In this document: positions 37,962 to 49,504 of the stretch, piece by piece
How the letters are laid out: each line of letters begins with the position of its first letter
Numbering within the stretch: the first letter of the stretch is position 1
NCBI GenBank assembly: GCA_965205015.1
Contig: OZ242029.1
Location: 1,184,001 to 1,248,000 of the forward strand
Source of the DNA: Candidatus Poribacteria bacterium
Lineage (GTDB): Bacteria > Poribacteria > WGA-4E > WGA-3G
Length of the DNA stretch: 64,000 nucleotides
Reading direction: 5' to 3'
Program-made: the position numbers and the translations under genes
The notes under the pieces: model-generated
Seen by the model: the letters and a program-made list of their open reading frames with translations, nothing else
Told to the model about the DNA's origin: nothing
Database searches by the model: none

Positions 37962-38960
37962 TCACCTACCTCTATCAACAAGCCACAAATCGCCTTCACT
38001 GACAGCAGCGAGGCGTTTCAACATTACAGCCCCCGGGAAATTAGGTGCCATCCCGATGCCCATCGCGAAGATACGTCCGTTGCCTGCGGCGTGTTCACCC
38101 ACAAGCGTGAGATCCGGTCCCGAAATCGTGGTAGGAATGCCGTCGCTAAAGAGAACAACGAGGGTCGGCGCGGTTTTGGCGGTTTCGGTCAACGCCGATA
38201 GCATATCGTGGTCAGTGCCTTTTGTATGAATTTGGGAGTGGATCTCGGCGAGATAGTTTGACGCGGCGGCAACCGTCTGCTCTGTTACCGGAACAAAGCC
38301 GTCTTGGTAGACGATGAGTTCCGTGCTAAACGCCATGATGTTGAAACTATCGTGGGGTTCCAAGAAAGTCAGCGAATTCCGCATGAGATCGATAATCCGC
38401 TTGAGTTTGCGCGTCGGGAGATTCTGCATACTCGTAGACAGATCGACACAATAAACAATGCGCTGCGGTCCGTCCTGCGCCTCAATGAACCTCACCAATC
38501 GACTTTTGAAACGAGTTTTGGCTTTCTGCTCCTTTTTGAAAGGACGTTCGATAACCCTTTGCACACGTGGGGTATCGTCAAATTCGACACGGGTTGCAGT
38601 GGGTCCCACAGGCGCACCGACGTCCTCGGTATCAAAGGGTTGGAAAGGTGCGGGTTCCGCTGCAGAGACGACGCCTCGGGTGCTGGCGGGTTGATTGCTC
38701 GTGAGGATTTTCAGGCGGGGTTGACTGACATCCCGCGTTCTTCTGTGCCGGACCCGTGTGCGTTTCGGAGGTGTCACGCGTCTGACTTTCGGCTTTTCTT
38801 CAATAACAAATAGGGCGTTGATGGCATCAGCATTTCGCTGCGGATGGGTACTAAACCAGAAGAAAAATCCGAGCACCCCAACGCCGAGGTGCAGTAGGAC
38901 AGAGATGAGCAATGCTTTGCTGGATTTCGATTTCATTTTTTTGATTTTACCTTTTTTCAA
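37962..38960 (-). CDS. Membrane-anchored vWA domain protein
   Basis: N-terminal TM (SVLLH), MIDAS DLSTS, FNIMAFS, LFSDG. Confidence 0.85.
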   Translation of the reverse strand: MKKGKIKKMKSKSSKALLISVLLHLGVGVLGFFFWFSTHPQRNADAINALFVIEEKPKVRRVTPPKRTRVRHRRTRDVSQPRLKILTSNQPASTRGVVSAAEPAPFQPFDTEDVGAPVGPTATRVEFDDTPRVQRVIERPFKKEQKAKTRFKSRLVRFIEAQDGPQRIVYCVDLSTSMQNLPTRKLKRIIDLMRNSLTFLEPHDSFNIMAFSTELIVYQDGFVPVTEQTVAAASNYLAEIHSQIHTKGTDHDMLSALTETAKTAPTLVVLFSDGIPTTISGPDLTLVGEHAAGNGRIFAMGIGMAPNFPGAVMLKRLAAVSEGDLWLVDRGR

Positions 38961-39544
38961 TCGCTCAAATCAACACTATTGTAGATGTCGCGTAACTGTA
39001 ACTCACACGCAATTGAGGGAAGTGAGATGCTGTCTTCCAGTTTCCGAAATTCGGTACGCAGCCAATAAGCACCTTCGCGAAGATAGTGCTCAACGCAAAC
39101 CTGATCCTGAGAGACAAGGACGTATTCCCGTAAAGACACGAGTTGCTGATAATGCCAGAATTTCTCTCCTCGGTCGCGTGCCTCTGTTGACGGAGAAAGC
39201 ACCTCTATGATGACAATCGGATTGAGAAGCGTGTCGGATACGCTATCCTCTGCTTGGGGTTCACCACAAAAAACGACAACATCAGGGTAGAAATAAGACC
39301 CCGTCTTGCTGACCTTGACGCGCATATCACTCGCGGCAGCTTTACATCTCCCGCCCCTTAATTGCGCACGGAGTTCACCGAAGACATCTCCAGTGATGAA
39401 ATTATGGTCAAAACTCGCTCCGGACATCGCGACGATCTCTCCTGCAAGGTATTCGTGTTTAGTGGTCGCCTTGCGTTCAAACGCGAGGTATTCTTCAGGC
39501 GTAAGATACGTTCTGGCTGCAATAGATGACATGAGTTCCTCCAT
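38957..39544 (-). CDS. Uma2 family endonuclease
   Basis: TPEEYL..E, YPDVVVFC, IIEVLSPSTEARDRGEK, LREYVLVSQ. Confidence 0.92.
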   Translation of the reverse strand: MEELMSSIAARTYLTPEEYLAFERKATTKHEYLAGEIVAMSGASFDHNFITGDVFGELRAQLRGGRCKAAASDMRVKVSKTGSYFYPDVVVFCGEPQAEDSVSDTLLNPIVIIEVLSPSTEARDRGEKFWHYQQLVSLREYVLVSQDQVCVEHYLREGAYWLRTEFRKLEDSISLPSIACELQLRDIYNSVDLSD

Positions 39545-39545
39545 G

Positions 39546-42500
39546 TTAGCGCATCGACATCTGTCCTTGGGTCTCTAATTTCCGGCGTAGGACAACACCC
39601 CACTGCCCAACAACCCATAACGCCTTACCGTCCTTGGAACGGGTGATGACATAGAGATTGTTGTCGATATCGGTGTGCTCCTGCTCCCATGTCTCGCCAC
39701 CATCGGTCGAACGGATAATGATCCCCTCTTCGCCGACTGCATAGACTTCCTTTTCAGAAAGGGCAATGATACCGTGAAGCGTTTTGTGAACACCGGTCGA
39801 TTTCGGCGCCCAATTAAAACCGCCATCCGTCGTCTTCAGGACGATCCCCGCTTCACCCGCCGCCCATCCTGTCCGCTTCGCAGCAAATGAAACCGCATTG
39901 AGATCGTAATTAATCTTTGTTTCGTGCAGCCGCCAATACTCACCCCCGTTGATGGTGCGTTGGGTCACCCCACTTCGCCCGACAGCCCAACCGAGGGGTG
40001 CGAATTTCATATCCACATCCATGAGTGTGTCGTTTGCAGTGGTGCGTTGAGGTGTCCACGTGGGACCGCCATCCTTGTTATGGATGATGTATCCGAGTCT
40101 ACCGACAGCCCAGCCCTCAGAAAACTTGCCGAAATCAACATCGTTCAGCGAGAACGTCCCAGGCGAGTCGCCCTCCATGAAAGGCGGTTGCTCAGGCGTA
40201 TCCCCTGCCGTCCACGCTGCGCCATCTGTTGTATAGAGGACCGTTCCATCGCGCTGCATCGCCCACCCCCATTTTTCAGGTTCGAGACTCGCAAAGTGTA
40301 CACCGATGAGACGTTGACGCGTCCGACTTCGGAGGGTCTCCCAGGTCTGTCCACCATCTTGGGTTTCCAACAGCACGCCCCCGTCCCCTGCGATCCAACC
40401 GTTTTTCTCATCGTAGAAGAGGACCTCTCGGAAGTCATTGCGCTGCTGTTCACCGAGTTGACGTTCCCATGTTTCTCCACCGTCTGCGGTATGGTAGATA
40501 CTGCCGCCACTGCCAACCGCCCAAGCGTGTTCTGCATTCAAGAAGTATACGTTGGCGATGCGGCGGGCCCCGCGTCCACGGCGTCCTCGCGGCTCTGGTG
40601 GCGGTGGGGGGGGTTGCTGCTGCCGCTGCACTGTGGGTGGTGTCGCCTGTTCAGCGTTAGGCGGAAGTTCACCTTCAGGTGCGAAACGTCCTGGACGTTG
40701 CCACTGCGCCCGAAGCCGATTTTGGATTTCCTCCGGGGTCTCGTCGTAAGTTAACGTCGGTCCCTCTGCGCCCTCTGCCTCCGCTTCTTCTGTTTCCTCT
40801 ATCTCTATCTCGGATTCTCCGAGTAAAAACGGGTTGAATTCTTCGTTGGATGCTTCCATAGCGAACATATTATCGTCTGCATCCTCGCCTGTATCAACAG
40901 ACACAAGTTTCCAATTGACCCCTTGGTCTTCGGTGATATACACGCCACCTCCACCGAGTCCCCAAGCGTTGGTATGTGAGTGGAAGGTGATGCTTCGCAG
41001 GTTTCCGCGTGTGCTTCGGGTCGTGGTCTGCAATCTCCATGTTTCACCACCGTCCCCGGTCAACAAAGCGTTACCGTTGCCGAGAACGACCCACCCTCGG
41101 TTTTCGTCAGCAAAGTGGACTGCAACCCCTGCTTGATTTGTCTTCGCTTGTATTTTCCAGTAGTCGCCACCATCAACGGTATGGAGAATAAACCCGCCAT
41201 CTCGACGTTGCGGTGTGACTGCCCACCCTACCTGACTGTTGATAAAGTGTATATCGGTAATGTTTGCGAGTGTGGTTCCAGTCTTCTGGATTTTCCATGT
41301 TTTGCCGCCATCCGTGGTATGCACGAATTGCCCAATCGTTGCGCCGAGCCATCCCACTTCGGCATTCAGGAAATGCATTGTGCTAACGCGGGGTAGGTTC
41401 TGCTGGGTTGCCTGAAGAATCGGCTTCCACGTTTCACCCCCATTTTCGGTCTGAAGTAAGATACCAGCACCAAGGATTCGCCCGTGTTTTTCGTCAGAAA
41501 ATTCGACCTGGCGCAGATCTTCACTGACACCACTGTGTTGTGGCAGCCATGTCTTGCCGCCGTCTGTGGTATGTGCAATTGCGCCGCCAGAACCGACCGC
41601 CCATCCCTTCTGTGCATCCACAAAATACGTATCGGCAAAGTTCGTTCGCCAAGTTGCCTGACGCATAATGTCCCAATGATAGTCAACGGGTTCAACAGGG
41701 ATTTCCGCTTCAGCCGTAATAATCTCCGGTTCTTCGGCGACCGGCGGTAATTTTGCTGGCAATTCTGCCTCTTCAATAGAGTAGCGCATCGCAATTCCAC
41801 CCTTACCGACAGCAACAACGCCGTCGGGTGAGAGTGCCAGTCCGTAGAGGTCGTTATCGGTGCCACTTTCTTGAACTTCCCACTTTTTGCCACCGTTGAC
41901 GGTGGTGAGCATCACCCCATCATCACCGACGATCAACCCGTGTTGTGTACCCGCAAAATAGAGTTTATTTAGGTTCGCTTGCGTGCCGCTGCGTTGGAAA
42001 TTCCAACGCTCTCCGCCGTTTGTCGTGTGTAGGATTTCGCCAAACTGTCCGACAATCCAGCCAGTGTTTTCATCTGCGAAGTAAACGGCATACAGTTCAT
42101 TGAAGGTGCCGGTCGTTTGCTGGTTCCAGGTCAACCCCCCATCTTCCGTCGTGAGGCAAACCCCGGGCCATCCGATAGCCCACCCTTTCTTTTCATCGAG
42201 AAAAAATACACCCTTTAGCATCAGCGAGAGAAAATCGCCCGTGGCAGTTTGGGACAGCCACGTTTTGCCACCATCAATTGTGTGTATGATACTACCGAGG
42301 TCCCCGACAGCCCAACCGACTTGGGGACCAATGAAGTGGACAGAACGGAGTGTAAAGGCGGAAGGCCCGCGCTGGCGTTCCCAGTTTGTGCCGCCATCGT
42401 TTGTATGAACGATGAGTCCACGCTCACCGACAGCCCAGCCGTGTTTGTCAGTCGCGAAATAGATGTTCCAGATGCCGTCCCAGATATCAGTCTCAATTTC

Positions 42501-43685
42501 GTTCCAGGTCTGACCGCCATCCTCACTCATTGCCATAGTCCCGCGTCTACCGACTGCAATGGCGCGATTTGCATTCGTAAATTGGACGTTCTGCAAGTCA
42601 TTCGCAGTCGTTCCACTGGTCATCTGCCATGTCGCGCCGGCATCCATCGTGTGCAAAATAGTGCCGTACCACCCAATTGCCCATGCCTCTGTAGGTGTCG
42701 TAAACTGGATTCCTGTTAAATTATTTTCCGTTCCACTTTCCATCAACTGCCAGTTGTCGCCCCCGTCTTCGGTCCGCGTAATAAAACCGACATCTGCTAC
42801 GGCGACCCCGTAATTTTCATCTGTGAAATGGATACTGTTGATGGTATCCCGGACGTGTCCATTAATGAGTGGGATACGACTGTCTTGACGCTCCCAATTG
42901 ATACCGGCGTTCGTTGTGTGGAAAATAGAGCCGTCACTGCCGACAATCCAACCTTCATTATCGCTGACGAAGAAGACCTGTTTATTGTCATTGATCATCC
43001 GGTCGCGTTCCCCCGCAAAGCGATTGCTCTGCTCTCGCCACGATTCGCCGCCGGTCTTGGTATGAAGAATTCTATCGTGAGTTCCGACAACCCATCCCGT
43101 TGAATCGTTGACGAACCAGACGCCATTGAGCATAAACTCGCTGACGTACTCGTACCGTTTCCACTCTTTCCCGCCGTTCTTGGTGTAGAGGACATCCGAA
43201 TCTTCTCCAACAATCCATCCCTCTTTTGAATTGGCGAAAAAGACATCAAGGAGCATCGCGGAGGTGCCACTCCGTTGCAAGGTCCAGTGTCTACCACCGT
43301 CGTCGGTTGACGCAACCAACCCTTCATCACCGACTGCCCACCCATAGTCTGCGTTCGTAAAGTAAACGGCTTTGAAGTCTAAGGAGGCATCAGGAATACG
43401 AAAGCCTGGGCTTGTTGTATCGACCTCCTGTTGCTTCCACGTCTTTCCACCGTCTGCGGTATGGATAATTAACCCTTTCTCCCCGACAATCCATCCTTGT
43501 TTATGATTGACGAAGTAGAGATCGGTGAAGTGTGTCTCCCAATCCGCCTTTCGGGTCGCTTCCATCTTGACACAACCGTTAAAAAGGAACAAGATGCCAA
43601 ACAAAAGTGGCAGGATAAGGCTATTAACAGCGAGTTTTAATTGATACAACACGCCAAAACGGGTCAGACTCCGTATCAAACTCAT
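39546..43685 (-). CDS. YCF48-like BNR/Asp-box multi-beta-propeller lipoprotein
   Basis: More than 25 GWxVG..ILHTxDGGxTW repeats, FNGC lipobox, acidic/Pro-rich insert. Confidence 0.9.
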   Translation of the reverse strand: MSLIRSLTRFGVLYQLKLAVNSLILPLLFGILFLFNGCVKMEATRKADWETHFTDLYFVNHKQGWIVGEKGLIIHTADGGKTWKQQEVDTTSPGFRIPDASLDFKAVYFTNADYGWAVGDEGLVASTDDGGRHWTLQRSGTSAMLLDVFFANSKEGWIVGEDSDVLYTKNGGKEWKRYEYVSEFMLNGVWFVNDSTGWVVGTHDRILHTKTGGESWREQSNRFAGERDRMINDNKQVFFVSDNEGWIVGSDGSIFHTTNAGINWERQDSRIPLINGHVRDTINSIHFTDENYGVAVADVGFITRTEDGGDNWQLMESGTENNLTGIQFTTPTEAWAIGWYGTILHTMDAGATWQMTSGTTANDLQNVQFTNANRAIAVGRRGTMAMSEDGGQTWNEIETDIWDGIWNIYFATDKHGWAVGERGLIVHTNDGGTNWERQRGPSAFTLRSVHFIGPQVGWAVGDLGSIIHTIDGGKTWLSQTATGDFLSLMLKGVFFLDEKKGWAIGWPGVCLTTEDGGLTWNQQTTGTFNELYAVYFADENTGWIVGQFGEILHTTNGGERWNFQRSGTQANLNKLYFAGTQHGLIVGDDGVMLTTVNGGKKWEVQESGTDNDLYGLALSPDGVVAVGKGGIAMRYSIEEAELPAKLPPVAEEPEIITAEAEIPVEPVDYHWDIMRQATWRTNFADTYFVDAQKGWAVGSGGAIAHTTDGGKTWLPQHSGVSEDLRQVEFSDEKHGRILGAGILLQTENGGETWKPILQATQQNLPRVSTMHFLNAEVGWLGATIGQFVHTTDGGKTWKIQKTGTTLANITDIHFINSQVGWAVTPQRRDGGFILHTVDGGDYWKIQAKTNQAGVAVHFADENRGWVVLGNGNALLTGDGGETWRLQTTTRSTRGNLRSITFHSHTNAWGLGGGGVYITEDQGVNWKLVSVDTGEDADDNMFAMEASNEEFNPFLLGESEIEIEETEEAEAEGAEGPTLTYDETPEEIQNRLRAQWQRPGRFAPEGELPPNAEQATPPTVQRQQQPPPPPPEPRGRRGRGARRIANVYFLNAEHAWAVGSGGSIYHTADGGETWERQLGEQQRNDFREVLFYDEKNGWIAGDGGVLLETQDGGQTWETLRSRTRQRLIGVHFASLEPEKWGWAMQRDGTVLYTTDGAAWTAGDTPEQPPFMEGDSPGTFSLNDVDFGKFSEGWAVGRLGYIIHNKDGGPTWTPQRTTANDTLMDVDMKFAPLGWAVGRSGVTQRTINGGEYWRLHETKINYDLNAVSFAAKRTGWAAGEAGIVLKTTDGGFNWAPKSTGVHKTLHGIIALSEKEVYAVGEEGIIIRSTDGGETWEQEHTDIDNNLYVITRSKDGKALWVVGQWGVVLRRKLETQGQMSMR

Positions 43686-46064: not shown

Positions 46065-47663
46065 ATGAAAGTATCGCTATCAAAGTTTAAGATTTACTTA
46101 GGCGTGTATCTGTTCTGTTTTGTAGCGTTAAGCCCGCATGTAACGGCAGACCAGCACGCTACAGATTCAAAAATTAGTTTTCATTCCCAGATTGTCCCGC
46201 TCCTCAAACGGAGTTGCCAAGGATGCCATCATCCTGGGGATCCAAATGGCGATCTGATTGTGACAACCTACGCAGCACTCAAACAAGGTGGAATGGCGGG
46301 GGATGCCATTGTCCCTGGAAAACCGGATGAAAGTCTCCTCATTGAACTTATCTCCGGCGATGAACCCGCAATGCCACAAAACATGGAACCCCTCTCCGCT
46401 GAAGAGGTCGAACTGTTCCGACGCTGGATTCTCGAAGGTGCACACGACGACACACCCGCTGAAGTCGACGATATGGGCGACGGAAACTATCCGACCTACA
46501 CAGTGCCTCCCGTGGTCACGGCACTGGCATACTCGCCGGATGGTAGCACCCTCGCGGTGTCGGGATTCCGCGAAATTTTGTTGTATGACACAACGAACTT
46601 TGAACGCAAAGGGCGCTTGGTCGGTAAAGCACATCGCATAGAATCGCTGACGTATACGGCAGATGGAAAGATTTTAGGCATGGCAGGTGGCTCCCCTGCC
46701 CAATTCGGCGAAGTGCAGCTATGGGATACCGCAACGAACACACTCATCAAAGCGATGCGTTCCAGCTATGACACCGTGTACGGACTCTCGTTCTCACCAG
46801 ATGCAAGCCGGGTCGCCTTCGGATGTTCAGACCAGACGGTCCGCGTCCTGTCCGTTGAAGACGAGAAAGAACTGATTAAATTCGACAACCACAGCGACTG
46901 GGTCTTCGGTACGATTTTCTCTACCGATGGTTCCCACTTCGTGAGTTGCGGGCGCGATACTGCCCTCAAATTGGTTGAGGTAGATACAGGCTCTTTCGTT
47001 GACGACATCAATTCCAGCAACAAGGGGTATGGAGAAATTAACACGCTCGCGCGGCACCCGACGAAAGATCAGGTTTTGAGTGCTGGTGAAGATCGAATCC
47101 CGCGGCTCTACAAAATCTTTCGCGAAATACGCAGAGATGTCGGGAATACGGATTTCAATCTCATCCAAGCGTATGAAGCACAGTCGGGTACAATTGAAGG
47201 CGTCGCGTTCTCAGCAGACGGTAGCCGGTTCGCGACTGGCAGCGCAGGCGGTGAAGCCCGTATCTACAACGTGGAAGACGGAAAACGTTTAGCAAGCATG
47301 CAAGGCGATGCAGTGGGTGTTTTCGCAGTTTCGTTCCATCCAGATGGCACGCAGCTCGCTACAGGCGGTTTTGATGGAAAGATTCGGATATTTGATACCG
47401 CTACCGGCAAACTACTGGATGCCTTTATGTCTGTCCCGATTGAACCCGCCGGAAGCGAGGATGTCGCTTTAGTCGTGACAGGCATGACGTGAGGGGCGTG
47501 CGTTGCCAAAGTGCAGGATGCACTTACACAGCACCAAAATGTTATTAGTGTTGAAGTTTCCCTCCCCGATCAAGCCATTATTAAAGTTAGGAAGAACACC
47601 ACCACCGCGGACGCTCTTGCAGACATCGTGAAAGCGACAGGATTTAGTGCGAAGGTTAAATAA
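46065..47663 (+). CDS. Planctomycete-type cytochrome c + WD40 + HMA domain selenoprotein (UGA at 47490-47492)
   Basis: Signal peptide, CQGCH, WD40 repeats; frame continues through TGA as VTGMT-U-GACVAKVQDAL...ATGFSAKVK, a complete HMA domain; hairpin downstream. Confidence 0.85.
47509..47525 (+). promoter_or_regulatory. Putative bacterial SECIS hairpin
   Basis: AAGTGC-AGGAT-GCACTT, 16 nt after UGA; same core as 57804-57819. Confidence 0.65.
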
Positions 47664-47689
47664 GGCGCGAAGGATACTGGGGGTTTCCT

Positions 47690-48034
47690 ATGACAATACA
47701 GGAACTACAAGAGATTATGTCTCAGCGGTTTGAAGCACAGGATAAGATGATCGTGCAGCGGTTTGAAGCACAGGATAAGATGATCGCGCAGCGGTTCGAG
47801 GGAATAGATCAGCGGTTTGAGGCGATAGATCAGCGATTTGGGGCATTAGAGAAACGCCAGGACCGCATTGAAACGCGTATGGATCGTATGGAAGGCAAAC
47901 TCGATAAAGTCGTGGAACTTGTCGCTATGTTACACGGGGAACGGGCATTTGCAGGCCGCTTTTGGAAGCATGCGGCGTGGATCACGCCAACCGTTATCGC
48001 CCTTGCTGCGCTCATCAAGAGTTTCTTTCTCTAG
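47690..48034 (+). CDS. Small coiled-coil protein with QRFEAxD repeats and C-terminal TM
   Basis: 33-bp and 21-bp repeats, hydrophobic C-terminus. Confidence 0.78.
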   Translation: MTIQELQEIMSQRFEAQDKMIVQRFEAQDKMIAQRFEGIDQRFEAIDQRFGALEKRQDRIETRMDRMEGKLDKVVELVAMLHGERAFAGRFWKHAAWITPTVIALAALIKSFFL

Positions 48035-48052: not shown

Positions 48053-49504
48053 ATGGCTCTCAAGGCACCCAATATCCTCTGGGTTTGCACGGATCAACAG
48101 CGTTACGACACAATCGGCGCATTAGGGAATCCGTATGTGTCCACACCGAACATCGATAATTTAGTGGCGGAAGGGGTGGCGTTCACGCACGCCTATTGTC
48201 AAAGCCCTATCTGTACCCCGAGCCGAGCGAGCTTTCTCACGGGGATGTATCCAAACGCAACACACGCGATCCGCAACGGAAACGATTTTTTTCCAGATGC
48301 GTATCCGCTTGTAACGCGCACCCTCGCAGATATCGGTTATGATTGCGGGCTGATTGGCAAACTTCACCTTGCGAGTGCATACGGTCGGGTGGAACCCCGC
48401 GTAAACGACGGCTACCGTTATTGGCAATACAGCCATGCGCCACGCGACGACTGGGAACAGGGACACGACTACGCCGATTGGGTCCGCACGCAGGGATACA
48501 TTTTAGGCGAGTTGAACCAGAACCCGGAAGGTGTACCAGCGGAGTTGCATCAGACGACCTGGTGTGCGGAAAAGACGATTGCGTTTATTCGCGAAGACCG
48601 GGAGGATTCCCCGTGGCTCGCGAGTGTTAATATCTACGACCCACATCCGCCGTTCAATCCACCACAGACACACCGAGACCAATATAATCCGGCGGAAATG
48701 CCAGAGCCGATTTTCCGAAACAGTGATCTGGAACAGCAGACCCGGCTACAAGCCGTCGATTTTCAATCCAAAGTCCGTACACCTGATGAACTGGACATTC
48801 GGAGTCCAATCTTACCGCAGACCCCGCGTCAAGAAGCAGAGGCAGTCGGGGCGAGAGATGCCAAAACACTCATAGCTGCCTATTACGCCATGATCCAACT
48901 GATTGACGAGCAGTTCGGTAGGATCCTTGAAGCACTTGACGAAACAGGGCAACGGGAAAACACCGTCATCATCTTCACGAGTGACCATGGAGAGACACTC
49001 GGCGACCATGGACTCATCCAAAAGGGGTGTAGATTCTACGAAGGTTTGGTCAGGGTGCCTCTGATTTTTTCATGGCAGGGACAATTTGCGAGTGGACTCA
49101 AGAGTGACGCACTCGTTGAACTCGTTGACAAAGCCCCGACGCTCTTGGAATTGGCGGGTTTAGCAGTCCCGGAGGAGATGCACGGCAGATCACTTCTGCC
49201 GATCCTTCGAGGTGAAGCGGATCCGAACCATCACCGCGATTTCGTCCGATGTGAGTACTACGACGCTGTGGACCTGCCGGATCACACTTTCGCAACAATG
49301 TATCGAAATGAACGTTACAAATTAGTAGTGTATCACGGGCACGAAGCGGGTGAACTCTACGATTTAATTGAGGATCCGGACGAATTTGAGAATCTCTGGC
49401 ATGTCGGTGCGAAACAAGGGGTCAAATTTGAACTTCTAAAACAGAGTTTTGATGCCTCCATGCTCGCCATGGACAAAGGCTCCCGGCGCGTCGGACCGAT
49501 GTGA
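48053..49504 (+). CDS. Sulfatase
   Basis: PNILWVCTDQQR, CTPSRASFLTG, GKLHL, FTSDHG, ELYDLIEDP. Confidence 0.93.
   Translation: MALKAPNILWVCTDQQRYDTIGALGNPYVSTPNIDNLVAEGVAFTHAYCQSPICTPSRASFLTGMYPNATHAIRNGNDFFPDAYPLVTRTLADIGYDCGLIGKLHLASAYGRVEPRVNDGYRYWQYSHAPRDDWEQGHDYADWVRTQGYILGELNQNPEGVPAELHQTTWCAEKTIAFIREDREDSPWLASVNIYDPHPPFNPPQTHRDQYNPAEMPEPIFRNSDLEQQTRLQAVDFQSKVRTPDELDIRSPILPQTPRQEAEAVGARDAKTLIAAYYAMIQLIDEQFGRILEALDETGQRENTVIIFTSDHGETLGDHGLIQKGCRFYEGLVRVPLIFSWQGQFASGLKSDALVELVDKAPTLLELAGLAVPEEMHGRSLLPILRGEADPNHHRDFVRCEYYDAVDLPDHTFATMYRNERYKLVVYHGHEAGELYDLIEDPDEFENLWHVGAKQGVKFELLKQSFDASMLAMDKGSRRVGPM

Follow-up and report, generated by a model that had tools for sequence, protein, structure and literature searches.

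Selenocysteine (Sec, U) in place of the first metal-binding cysteine of a heavy-metal-associated (HMA) domain is already on record for P-type ATPases and MerA-like proteins, according to the available parts of PMC9312934 (a review table) and PMC1976440, and NCBIfam holds two curated families of HMA/CopZ-like selenoproteins, NF041115 and NF045683. Here we describe a gene that appears to carry the same substitution at the C-terminus of a cytochrome c-WD40 protein. It lies in a 64,000-nucleotide stretch of a sponge-associated Candidatus Poribacteria bacterium (GenBank assembly GCA_965205015.1, contig OZ242029.1, positions 1,184,001 to 1,248,000 of the forward strand), which we call the window and whose own numbering is used throughout. 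An earlier reading of this DNA, the original prediction, had proposed that an in-frame UGA encodes Sec in an HMA domain fused to heme c and β-propeller modules. Based on the data below, genuine Sec insertion into an HMA-bearing, presumably exported cytochrome is very probable.

Conservation of the frame beyond the UGA

The open reading frame (ORF) at 46065..47492 (+) encodes 475 aa and ends in a TGA at 47490-47492, in the context GGC ATG ACG TGA GGG GCG TGC. Beyond this codon, 56 further in-frame codons lead to a TAA at 47664-47666, and the complete predicted selenoprotein coding sequence therefore spans 46065..47666 (+) with the TAA included and specifies 532 residues, with Sec at U476; tblastn alignments to 80 related loci cover residues 1-532. 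With the TGA read as U, the C-terminus is ...VVTGMT-U-GACVAKVQDALTQHQNVISVEVSLPDQAIIKVRKNTTTADALADIVKATGFSAKVK, and both the coordinates and the peptide agree with the original prediction of a frame running 56 codons past the apparent stop. Since a stop-free run of 56 codons arises by chance with a probability of ~0.07 ((61/64)^56, uniform codons assumed), the open run alone proves nothing. TGA is an ordinary stop elsewhere in the window, where it ends 15 of 48 long frames, and a scan of the 64 kb for TGA-interrupted frames found no second convincing selenoprotein gene.

A scan of GTDB species genomes returned 194 pattern matches, 115 of which encode a relative, and the best 80 were kept. All 80 loci are from metagenome-assembled genomes of Poribacteria, and the tblastn alignment reaches residue 529-532 in each. 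Counting the window, the codon at U476 is TGA in 81/81 loci, every one of which has the motif G-M-T-U-x-x-C, and 79 loci have an in-frame extension of 56 codons, the other two having 57 and 58. Across the three frames of the 79 extensions there are 0 (frame 0), 61 and 445 stops. The pairwise Nei-Gojobori ratio of nonsynonymous to synonymous substitution (dN/dS) is 0.134 for the 56 codons after the UGA (2890 pairs with usable dS, 79 equal-length sequences) and 0.142 for the 60 codons preceding it (2031 pairs). Three codons past the UGA, the codon of C479, the second UxxC ligand (47499..47501, +), alternates between TGC and TGT and always encodes Cys, its first two bases (alignment columns 10-11) being invariant in 78/78 distinct sequences and its third C or T. 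Because frame 0 is stop-free and its dN/dS is this low, we take the extension to be translated in this frame, and a translated segment excludes a recent nonsense mutation or a dead tail. The two outcomes that the original prediction had named as fatal, a post-UGA segment free of conservation or purifying selection and close relatives that all carry TGC, were not what we found, the latter being contradicted both by the 81 loci and by a single TGA in each of 109 full-length matches in the phylum.

The reverse reading holds that translation ends at UGA 47490, that the 475-aa protein is the real product, and that the downstream 171 nt, although conserved, serve as an untranslated or regulatory spacer or are left over from a dead domain. 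Public records have exactly this form. In a protein search over 5.8 billion protein clusters, the best 120 matches listed (71-94% identity, 439-494 aa, at most 89% query cover) all end at or before the UGA point, and those that carry a name are Candidatus Poribacteria entries called 'hypothetical protein' or 'WD40 repeat protein'. Homologues at the greater distance of 37-53% identity finish just past the propeller with no HMA domain, and in 7 Poribacteria genomes the orthologue lacks any HMA domain. However, the segment past the UGA shows purifying selection on codons and a stop-free frame, the HMA β1 strand and GMT upstream of the UGA would be a useless tail, and orthologues with a Cys codon at this position read straight through. 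Moreover, the codon is TGA, and never TAA or TAG, in 81/81 loci even though the true terminators of the same loci are TAG in 59, TAA in 19 and TGA in 3. We consider termination at this codon highly improbable; rather, since 120/120 listed records stop at residue ~475, the HMA domain is missing from the databases.

That domain spans residues 464-531 (47454..47657, +), with the motif G-M-T-U476-G-A-C479. When the TGA is taken as a Cys codon, the C-terminal 72 residues match Pfam HMA (PF00403) with an E-value of 2.3e-8 and 34.7 bits (gathering score 24.8), over profile positions 4-61 of 62 and straddling the TGA, which was the comparison that the original prediction had called for. An AlphaFold2 model built from a 47-row alignment (mean predicted local distance difference test (pLDDT) 86.6, predicted template modelling score 0.75) folds residues 464-531 as β-α-β-β-α-β, with strands at 464-472, 493-499, 503-509 and 528-531 and helices at 477-488 and 515-524 (block pLDDT 87-94), and places U476 in the β1-α1 loop. 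Among solved sequences, the domain is nearest to the Cu(I)/Hg(II) HMA domains of ATP7B, ATP7A, CopA, CopZ, MerP and MerA. The UGA (47490..47492, +) thus falls at the first metal-binding Cys of GMTCxxC, as had been claimed, and nine deeper-branching genomes have TGT or TGC at the aligned codon. Since the domain spans the UGA, neither half of it can fold alone.

The downstream hairpin, Sec/Cys alternation and selenocysteine machinery

Nineteen nucleotides after the U of the UGA begins a candidate selenocysteine insertion sequence (SECIS), the hairpin AAGUGCA-GGA-UGCACUU (47509..47525, +), with a core stem GUGC/GCAC and an apical loop containing GG. Its consensus across the loci is (A)AGUGCA-GGN-UGCACU(U) at positions +19..+35 from the UGA, and its loop lies 26 nt from the UGA. 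Third codon positions within the hairpin are 0.88-1.00 conserved against ~0.4-0.8 in the flanking codons, and the middle base of the GAU codon, which is the third loop nucleotide, varies freely, so that the codon specifies D, G, A or V. The hairpin emerges from an RNAalifold analysis of 74 distinct sequences, and standard pairs fill 96.7% of pair cells against 15.6-46.5% with slid partners (78 distinct sequences, paralogues included). Of the seven stem pairs, three are invariant, two change on one side only and the remaining two have compensatory changes (4 cells). RNAalifold found no conserved lower stem, and the conserved part is a stem of 5-7 bp only.

In the mechanism that we propose, the mRNA would present a UGA at codon 476 and, 19 nt on, a short G+C-rich hairpin with the loop GG; SelB carrying Sec-tRNA(Sec) would bind this bacterial SECIS (bSECIS), and selenocysteine would be inserted in place of termination, giving 532 instead of the annotated 475 residues. 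The hairpin presumably resembles the E. coli fdhF minihelix, and we take its spacing to fit the bSECIS model window (16-37 nt).

A separate small gene starting at the invariant GTG 47511 (MQDALTQ..., 50 aa) would offer another account of the conserved downstream sequence, given that this GTG is 100% conserved and has a G-rich stretch ~15 nt upstream. Its product would lack β1 and both HMA metal ligands, and the five codons between the UGA and AAA-GTG are conserved as amino acids with synonymous variation present. Because the GTG is part of the hairpin stem, its invariance is explained without a start codon, and of all the alternatives considered we judge this one the least probable.

How the codon and the hairpin behave together was examined in a search of 175 same-phylum genomes with the read-through protein; the counts that follow are of the matches listed, beyond which there are 117 more. 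At 68-93% identity and reaching residue ~530 there are 109 genomes, each with exactly one TGA. Twelve genomes at 56-62% identity reach at least residue 528, nine with no stop and three with one TGA, and in a further 11 genomes the match ends at residue 459-474 with no stop. The nine stop-free matches have TGT (7) or TGC (2) at the aligned codon, with C instead of U in the motif. Five deep-branching genomes have the TGA (G035, G063, G067, G068 and G069). The original prediction had pointed to TGA/TGY alternation among orthologues as a check, and the alternation is indeed present deeper in the phylum. The hairpin motif GUGC-N-GG-N-Y-GC-R-C tracks it, occurring in 85/85 Sec rows and 0/9 Cys rows (102 of 106 rows parsed; the orthologues of G017 and G020 were left out, the motif not being parsable). 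Where the codon is for Cys, GA or AA replaces the loop GG while the peptide KVQxAL is retained, and the five deep-branching Sec genomes keep the loop GG. In a rough FastTree phylogeny of the PSCyt1-WD40 core of the protein, upstream of the HMA domain (101 rows), the HMA-bearing forms have a Sec clade as their basal branch and 5 state changes are needed, which suggests that Sec may be ancestral to these forms; because the root and several forks are weak, we claim no direction of Sec/Cys change.

Two variants of the arrangement were seen. The G035 protein carries two tandem HMA domains, each with its own TGA and hairpin (L096:1625-1894), and would contain two selenocysteines. In another genome, the full copy is followed ~1 kb further on by a second, partial one that covers residues ~340-532 and has a TGA of its own (L050:5410-5457 and G070:C53:7076-7654).

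All five complete Poribacteria chromosomes that carry an orthologue (72-93% identical) also carry tRNA-Sec, selA, selB and selD. There is one tRNA-Sec per genome, scoring 78 bits against a gathering score of 47, with the anticodon tca by ARAGORN and adjoining selB. Across the five genomes, selB scores 346-362 bits against a cut-off of 242, selA 601-612 against 268, and selD 355-363 against 125. The selD gene itself has one in-frame TGA in all five; in the two copies inspected (L093 and L094; G004 and G001) it reads KCAG-U-ASKL, followed by AGCUC-CGGGU-GAGCU with a loop NGGNU like that of the U476 hairpin. The selenophosphate synthetase of Poribacteria would then itself be a selenoprotein, a phenomenon known elsewhere.

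Read-through without selenocysteine, by near-cognate insertion of Trp or Cys or by a lineage-specific reassignment of UGA, has in its favor that the inserted residue is read from nucleotide sequence and that hairpins downstream of stops can also stimulate generic read-through. Reassignment is contradicted by UGA ending 15/48 long frames of the window and this very gene in 3/81 loci. Sec is the known substitute at a metal-binding Cys such as this one, 5/5 related genomes have the complete Sec machinery, and the forms with TGY at the codon are precisely those that have lost the hairpin. Read-through of this kind is about as improbable as termination at the UGA.

Several observations nevertheless weigh against the insertion of Sec guided by this hairpin. 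Covariation is thin, with its four cells confined to two pairs and stemming partly from paralogues while the three core pairs are invariant, and the case for the hairpin consequently draws mainly on conservation at synonymous sites. No Rfam SECIS or other family was found, either by an E-value search of 47300-47800 or by a gathering-score search of the whole window. Folded as a single sequence, 47485-47560 (76 nt) gains no stability over shuffles (z = 0.12), and the hairpin is thus visible from comparative data only. The closing pair is broken at one Sec locus (L051), and both Sec domains of L096 have A/C there. The window itself contains no tRNA and no sel gene, and the Sec machinery of its organism is taken from the relatives with a 72-93% identical orthologue. 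Sponge metatranscriptome contigs cover the gene, and those listed include 4 in X15 and 2 in X17 that run across the UGA with 31 nt or more on either side; they give a weak hint of transcription across it, but they come from relatives (8-83 differences), may contain DNA and give no strand. Finally, a protein search with residues 440-532 returned 66 matches, none a full-length Cys form, comprising truncated Poribacteria proteins and 7 P-type ATPases (33-37% identity); because this word-indexed search missed the nine Cys forms found by the genome search, database negatives are weak.

Protein architecture, gene context and proposed role

Upstream of the HMA domain, the heme c and β-propeller parts named in the original prediction were both confirmed by Pfam and AlphaFold2. 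Residues 1-28 (46065..46148, +) form a probable secretory (Sec-type) signal peptide, read by eye as ending in ...HVTA before DQH, and the AlphaFold2 model has an N-terminal helix at 2-22. PSCyt1 (Planctomycete cytochrome c) occupies residues 51-104 (46215..46376, +; PF07635, E-value 3.9e-11, 43.8 bits against a gathering score of 22), with the heme motif C51-Q-G-C54-H55 at 46215-46229; C51, C54, H55 and M103 are invariant in alignment A2, distant homologues included. A seven-bladed WD40 β-propeller follows at residues ~150-455 (46512..47429, +; PF00400, 107.9 bits), modelled at 154-455 as 28 strands in 7 groups of 4 with pLDDT mostly >90. There is no ATPase family among the best 25 of the 42 Pfam families matching the protein, and the HMA domain comes after the propeller. 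Export is expected of a c-type cytochrome, and we read the protein as a signal peptide, a mono-heme PSCyt1 cytochrome c, a seven-bladed WD40 propeller and a C-terminal HMA domain with UxxC, probably exported.

The gene appears to belong with two partners. In the deeper lineages L120-L123 the orthologue is followed directly by a ~830-aa PSCyt2-PSD1 gene and a 481-aa DUF1501 gene. The window has the same partners, a PSCyt2 (DUF1549)-PSD1 (DUF1553) protein of 829 aa with a CNKCH motif (52806..55295, +; Pfam; 69% identical to the L123 copy) and a DUF1501 protein of 481 aa (55333..56778, +; PF07394, E-value 5.8e-106; 83% identical to the L123 copy) with a twin-arginine-like N-terminus, SRREFLRVGG, read by eye. 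Here an insertion lies between them and the selenoprotein gene, comprising ORFs for a small coiled-coil protein and for a 304-aa product together with genes for a sulfatase, a DNA methylase and a WD40 protein. PSCyt2-PSD1 is linked to the selenoprotein gene in 4 of 5 genomes checked, the exception being G004. The top 150 matches of a representative search are mostly giant WD40 proteins, and 5 of 6 distant homologues scanned with Pfam are single-chain PSCyt1-WD40-PSCyt2-PSD1 proteins; these six belong to 22 of the best 150 distant relatives that were inspected by sequence, none of which has an HMA domain. Because 5/6 are fused, we regard the Poribacteria gene as the split-off front half of PSCyt1-WD40-PSCyt2-PSD1, with the HMA domain at the break point. 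The 829-aa protein has a conserved stretch GCNxGxCHGAxxGKNGFKLSLRGYD near its N-terminus, and the same stretch stands at the C-terminal end of a 640-aa PSCyt1-WD40 homologue, P0166.

We propose that, after export and heme attachment, the Sec-Cys pair would bind a soft metal ion, e.g. Cu(I) or Hg(II), for which a selenolate would offer a lower pKa and stronger and faster metal binding than a thiolate. The metal site would act beside the heme/propeller module, the PSCyt2-PSD1 heme protein and the Tat-type DUF1501 protein. Soft-metal binding is the role that we favor, and it is somewhat likelier than not to be the biochemical one; export, the bound metal and any exchange of electrons by the heme with the Se-S site are likewise proposals.

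The competing view accepts Sec but makes UxxC a redox center cycling between selenol/thiol and selenenylsulfide, to or from which heme c supplies or removes electrons, with the HMA fold as a scaffold. Most prokaryotic UxxC selenoproteins are thiol-oxidoreductase-like, as far as the available text of PMC1976440 and the review tables of PMC9312934 go, and here a heme c domain is part of the same polypeptide and the linked PSCyt2-PSD1 protein adds a CNKCH motif. The domain, however, matches HMA and not a thioredoxin fold (Pfam, AlphaFold2), the solved sequences closest to it are without exception domains that bind Cu(I)/Hg(II), and the full GMTxxxC loop of metal-binding HMA domains is kept. A one-electron heme would also be a poor partner for a two-electron Se-S couple. 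A purely redox role seems rather unlikely. Soft-metal binding in turn receives no help from the neighbors: the YceI, membrane protein, sulfatase and DNA methylase genes point to no metal pathway, and neither the metal nor the role of the heme is supported by gene context.

Among the 80 loci a same-strand sulfatase directly follows the gene in 74, YceI lies upstream in 49 and a membrane protein in 45. The sulfatase of the window (48053-49504, +) has a CTPSR formylglycine motif and no evident signal peptide; in related loci it often starts ~8 codons past the true stop of the selenoprotein, and the two genes are likely to be co-transcribed, with no functional link evident. Between them in the window lies an ORF of 114 aa (47690-48034, +) with near-perfect repeats QRFEAQDKMI / QRFE.IDQRF and a hydrophobic C-terminus, present in 14 of the 80 related loci; RNA-library contigs of relatives connect 47662 directly to 48041 and skip this ORF. 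An N6/N4 DNA methylase (49626-50417, +) occurs in 53/80 related loci. Situated between the selenoprotein and PSCyt2-PSD1 genes is a second, stand-alone WD40 propeller gene (51667-52611, +), whose 314-aa product gives very strong WD40 matches. On the other side of the selenoprotein gene are a Uma2-family putative endonuclease (38957-39544, -) and a 1379-aa BNR/sortilin-repeat protein (39546-43685, -).

A possible second Sec-HMA family and comparison with known systems

The five complete genomes contain further HMA matches in small frames, each interrupted by one TGA; no stop interrupts the HMA domains of the P-type ATPases that these genomes encode. The six small genes that were inspected encode 113-129 aa with a lipoprotein-like signal peptide, GMT-U-xx-C and a hairpin like that of the large gene (L136:582-968 and L136:1135-1473, +; L137:975-1358, -; L138:399-779, +; L139:437-781, +; L140:508-891, -), although in two of the six the closing A-U pair is replaced by G-C. 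Two of them stand in tandem in G001, and G005 has two adjacent TGA-interrupted HMA matches, one of which was inspected. The small proteins fall below every NCBIfam cut-off, the best being NF041115 at 43-63 bits against 95, and their neighbors (GIY-YIG, PhyH, a glycosyltransferase and one CDF transporter) indicate no metal pathway. From their sequences they look like a second unannotated Sec-HMA family and are a possible source of the fused domain. Since the SECIS lies inside the coding sequence of the domain, we infer that a Sec-HMA unit could move as a whole. A bolder idea, which we put forward as a long shot, is that Sec-HMA is a portable recoding module that Poribacteria have copied into periplasmic contexts (the small lipoproteins, the PSCyt1-WD40 protein with its one or two copies, and the tandem partial copy), and that this would make PSCyt1/PSCyt2/PSD1 plus DUF1501 a selenium-dependent periplasmic machine in which heme c exchanges electrons with a metal or metalloid at the Se-S site, e.g. 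Cu(II)/Cu(I) or Hg(II), in a metal-rich sponge host.

These results have practical as well as biological implications. Public gene calls shorten what is almost certainly a conserved selenoprotein by 57 residues, and databases are without a domain that is conserved across more than 110 Poribacteria genomes at species level. The alternation is a clean natural experiment, the SECIS hairpin being kept with UGA and decayed with UGY. For sponge symbiosis, the gene adds to the enrichment of selA and selB in sponge symbionts recorded in the available text of PMC5649159. The fusion also provides a lead on the PSCyt1/PSCyt2/PSD1/DUF1501 proteins, which are abundant in Planctomycete-like genomes, since a candidate high-affinity soft-metal or Se-S site is tethered exactly where the chain of other phyla continues into PSCyt2-PSD1. 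We know of no function assigned to this system as a whole.

The original prediction did not recognize the fusion as described, and it does appear undescribed: the architecture and the lineage appear new, whereas Sec at the first HMA Cys, known from NF041115 and NF045683, is not. The available text of PMC13188914, PMC9312934, PMC5649159, PMC13582414, bioRxiv 10.1101/2022.07.06.499078 and PMC1976440, whose supplementary tables could list it, contains no description of a PSCyt1-WD40-HMA(UxxC) family, and in that of the 2026 review PMC13188914 there is no occurrence of HMA, WD40 or Poribacteria.

One close likeness is to the Sec-HMA P1B-type ATPases (available parts of PMC9312934 and PMC1976440), in which Sec likewise replaces the first Cys of GMTCxxC in an HMA fold to give UxxC. 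In contrast to these enzymes, there is no ATPase here and the HMA domain is C-terminal on a heme c/WD40 protein; because it is carried at the C-terminus of a predicted exported protein, it would be periplasmic rather than cytoplasmic. Of the curated selenoprotein families, NF041115 ('UxxU_metal_bind') aligns with the C-terminal domain over 70/74 positions but scores 33.6 bits, below its cut-off of 95, and differs in having UxxU rather than UxxC and in being free-standing rather than fused. NF045683 ('MerT/CopZ fusion-like heavy metal transport selenoprotein', MerT_CopZ_Se) scores 12.6 against 375 bits, and the MerT region is lacking here. The metallochaperones MerP and CopZ likewise have one HMA domain each, its site being of the GMTCxxC type; MerP, too, is periplasmic, CopZ being cytoplasmic, and the Poribacteria domain has sequence matches to CopZ, MerP and NmerA; both models nevertheless score below their cut-offs (MerP, TIGR02052, 29.8 against 92.55 bits; CopZ, NF033794, 36.4 against 95 bits), and the Poribacteria protein differs from both in having Sec for Cys, no adjacent mer or cop genes, and a domain tethered to a cytochrome/propeller.

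At the RNA level, the hairpin is like the E. coli fdhF-type bacterial SECIS in being a stem-loop within the coding sequence just past the UGA with G in the apical loop, but it differs in that only a 5-7 bp stem is conserved and no Rfam model matches; SelB binding is a prediction. With the Planctomycete-type PSCyt1-PSCyt2-PSD1 and DUF1501 system, the locus shares the N-terminal PSCyt1 domain and the linked PSCyt2-PSD1 and DUF1501 genes; it departs from that system in that the Poribacteria chain is divided behind the propeller, where a Sec- or Cys-HMA domain forms the new C-terminus.

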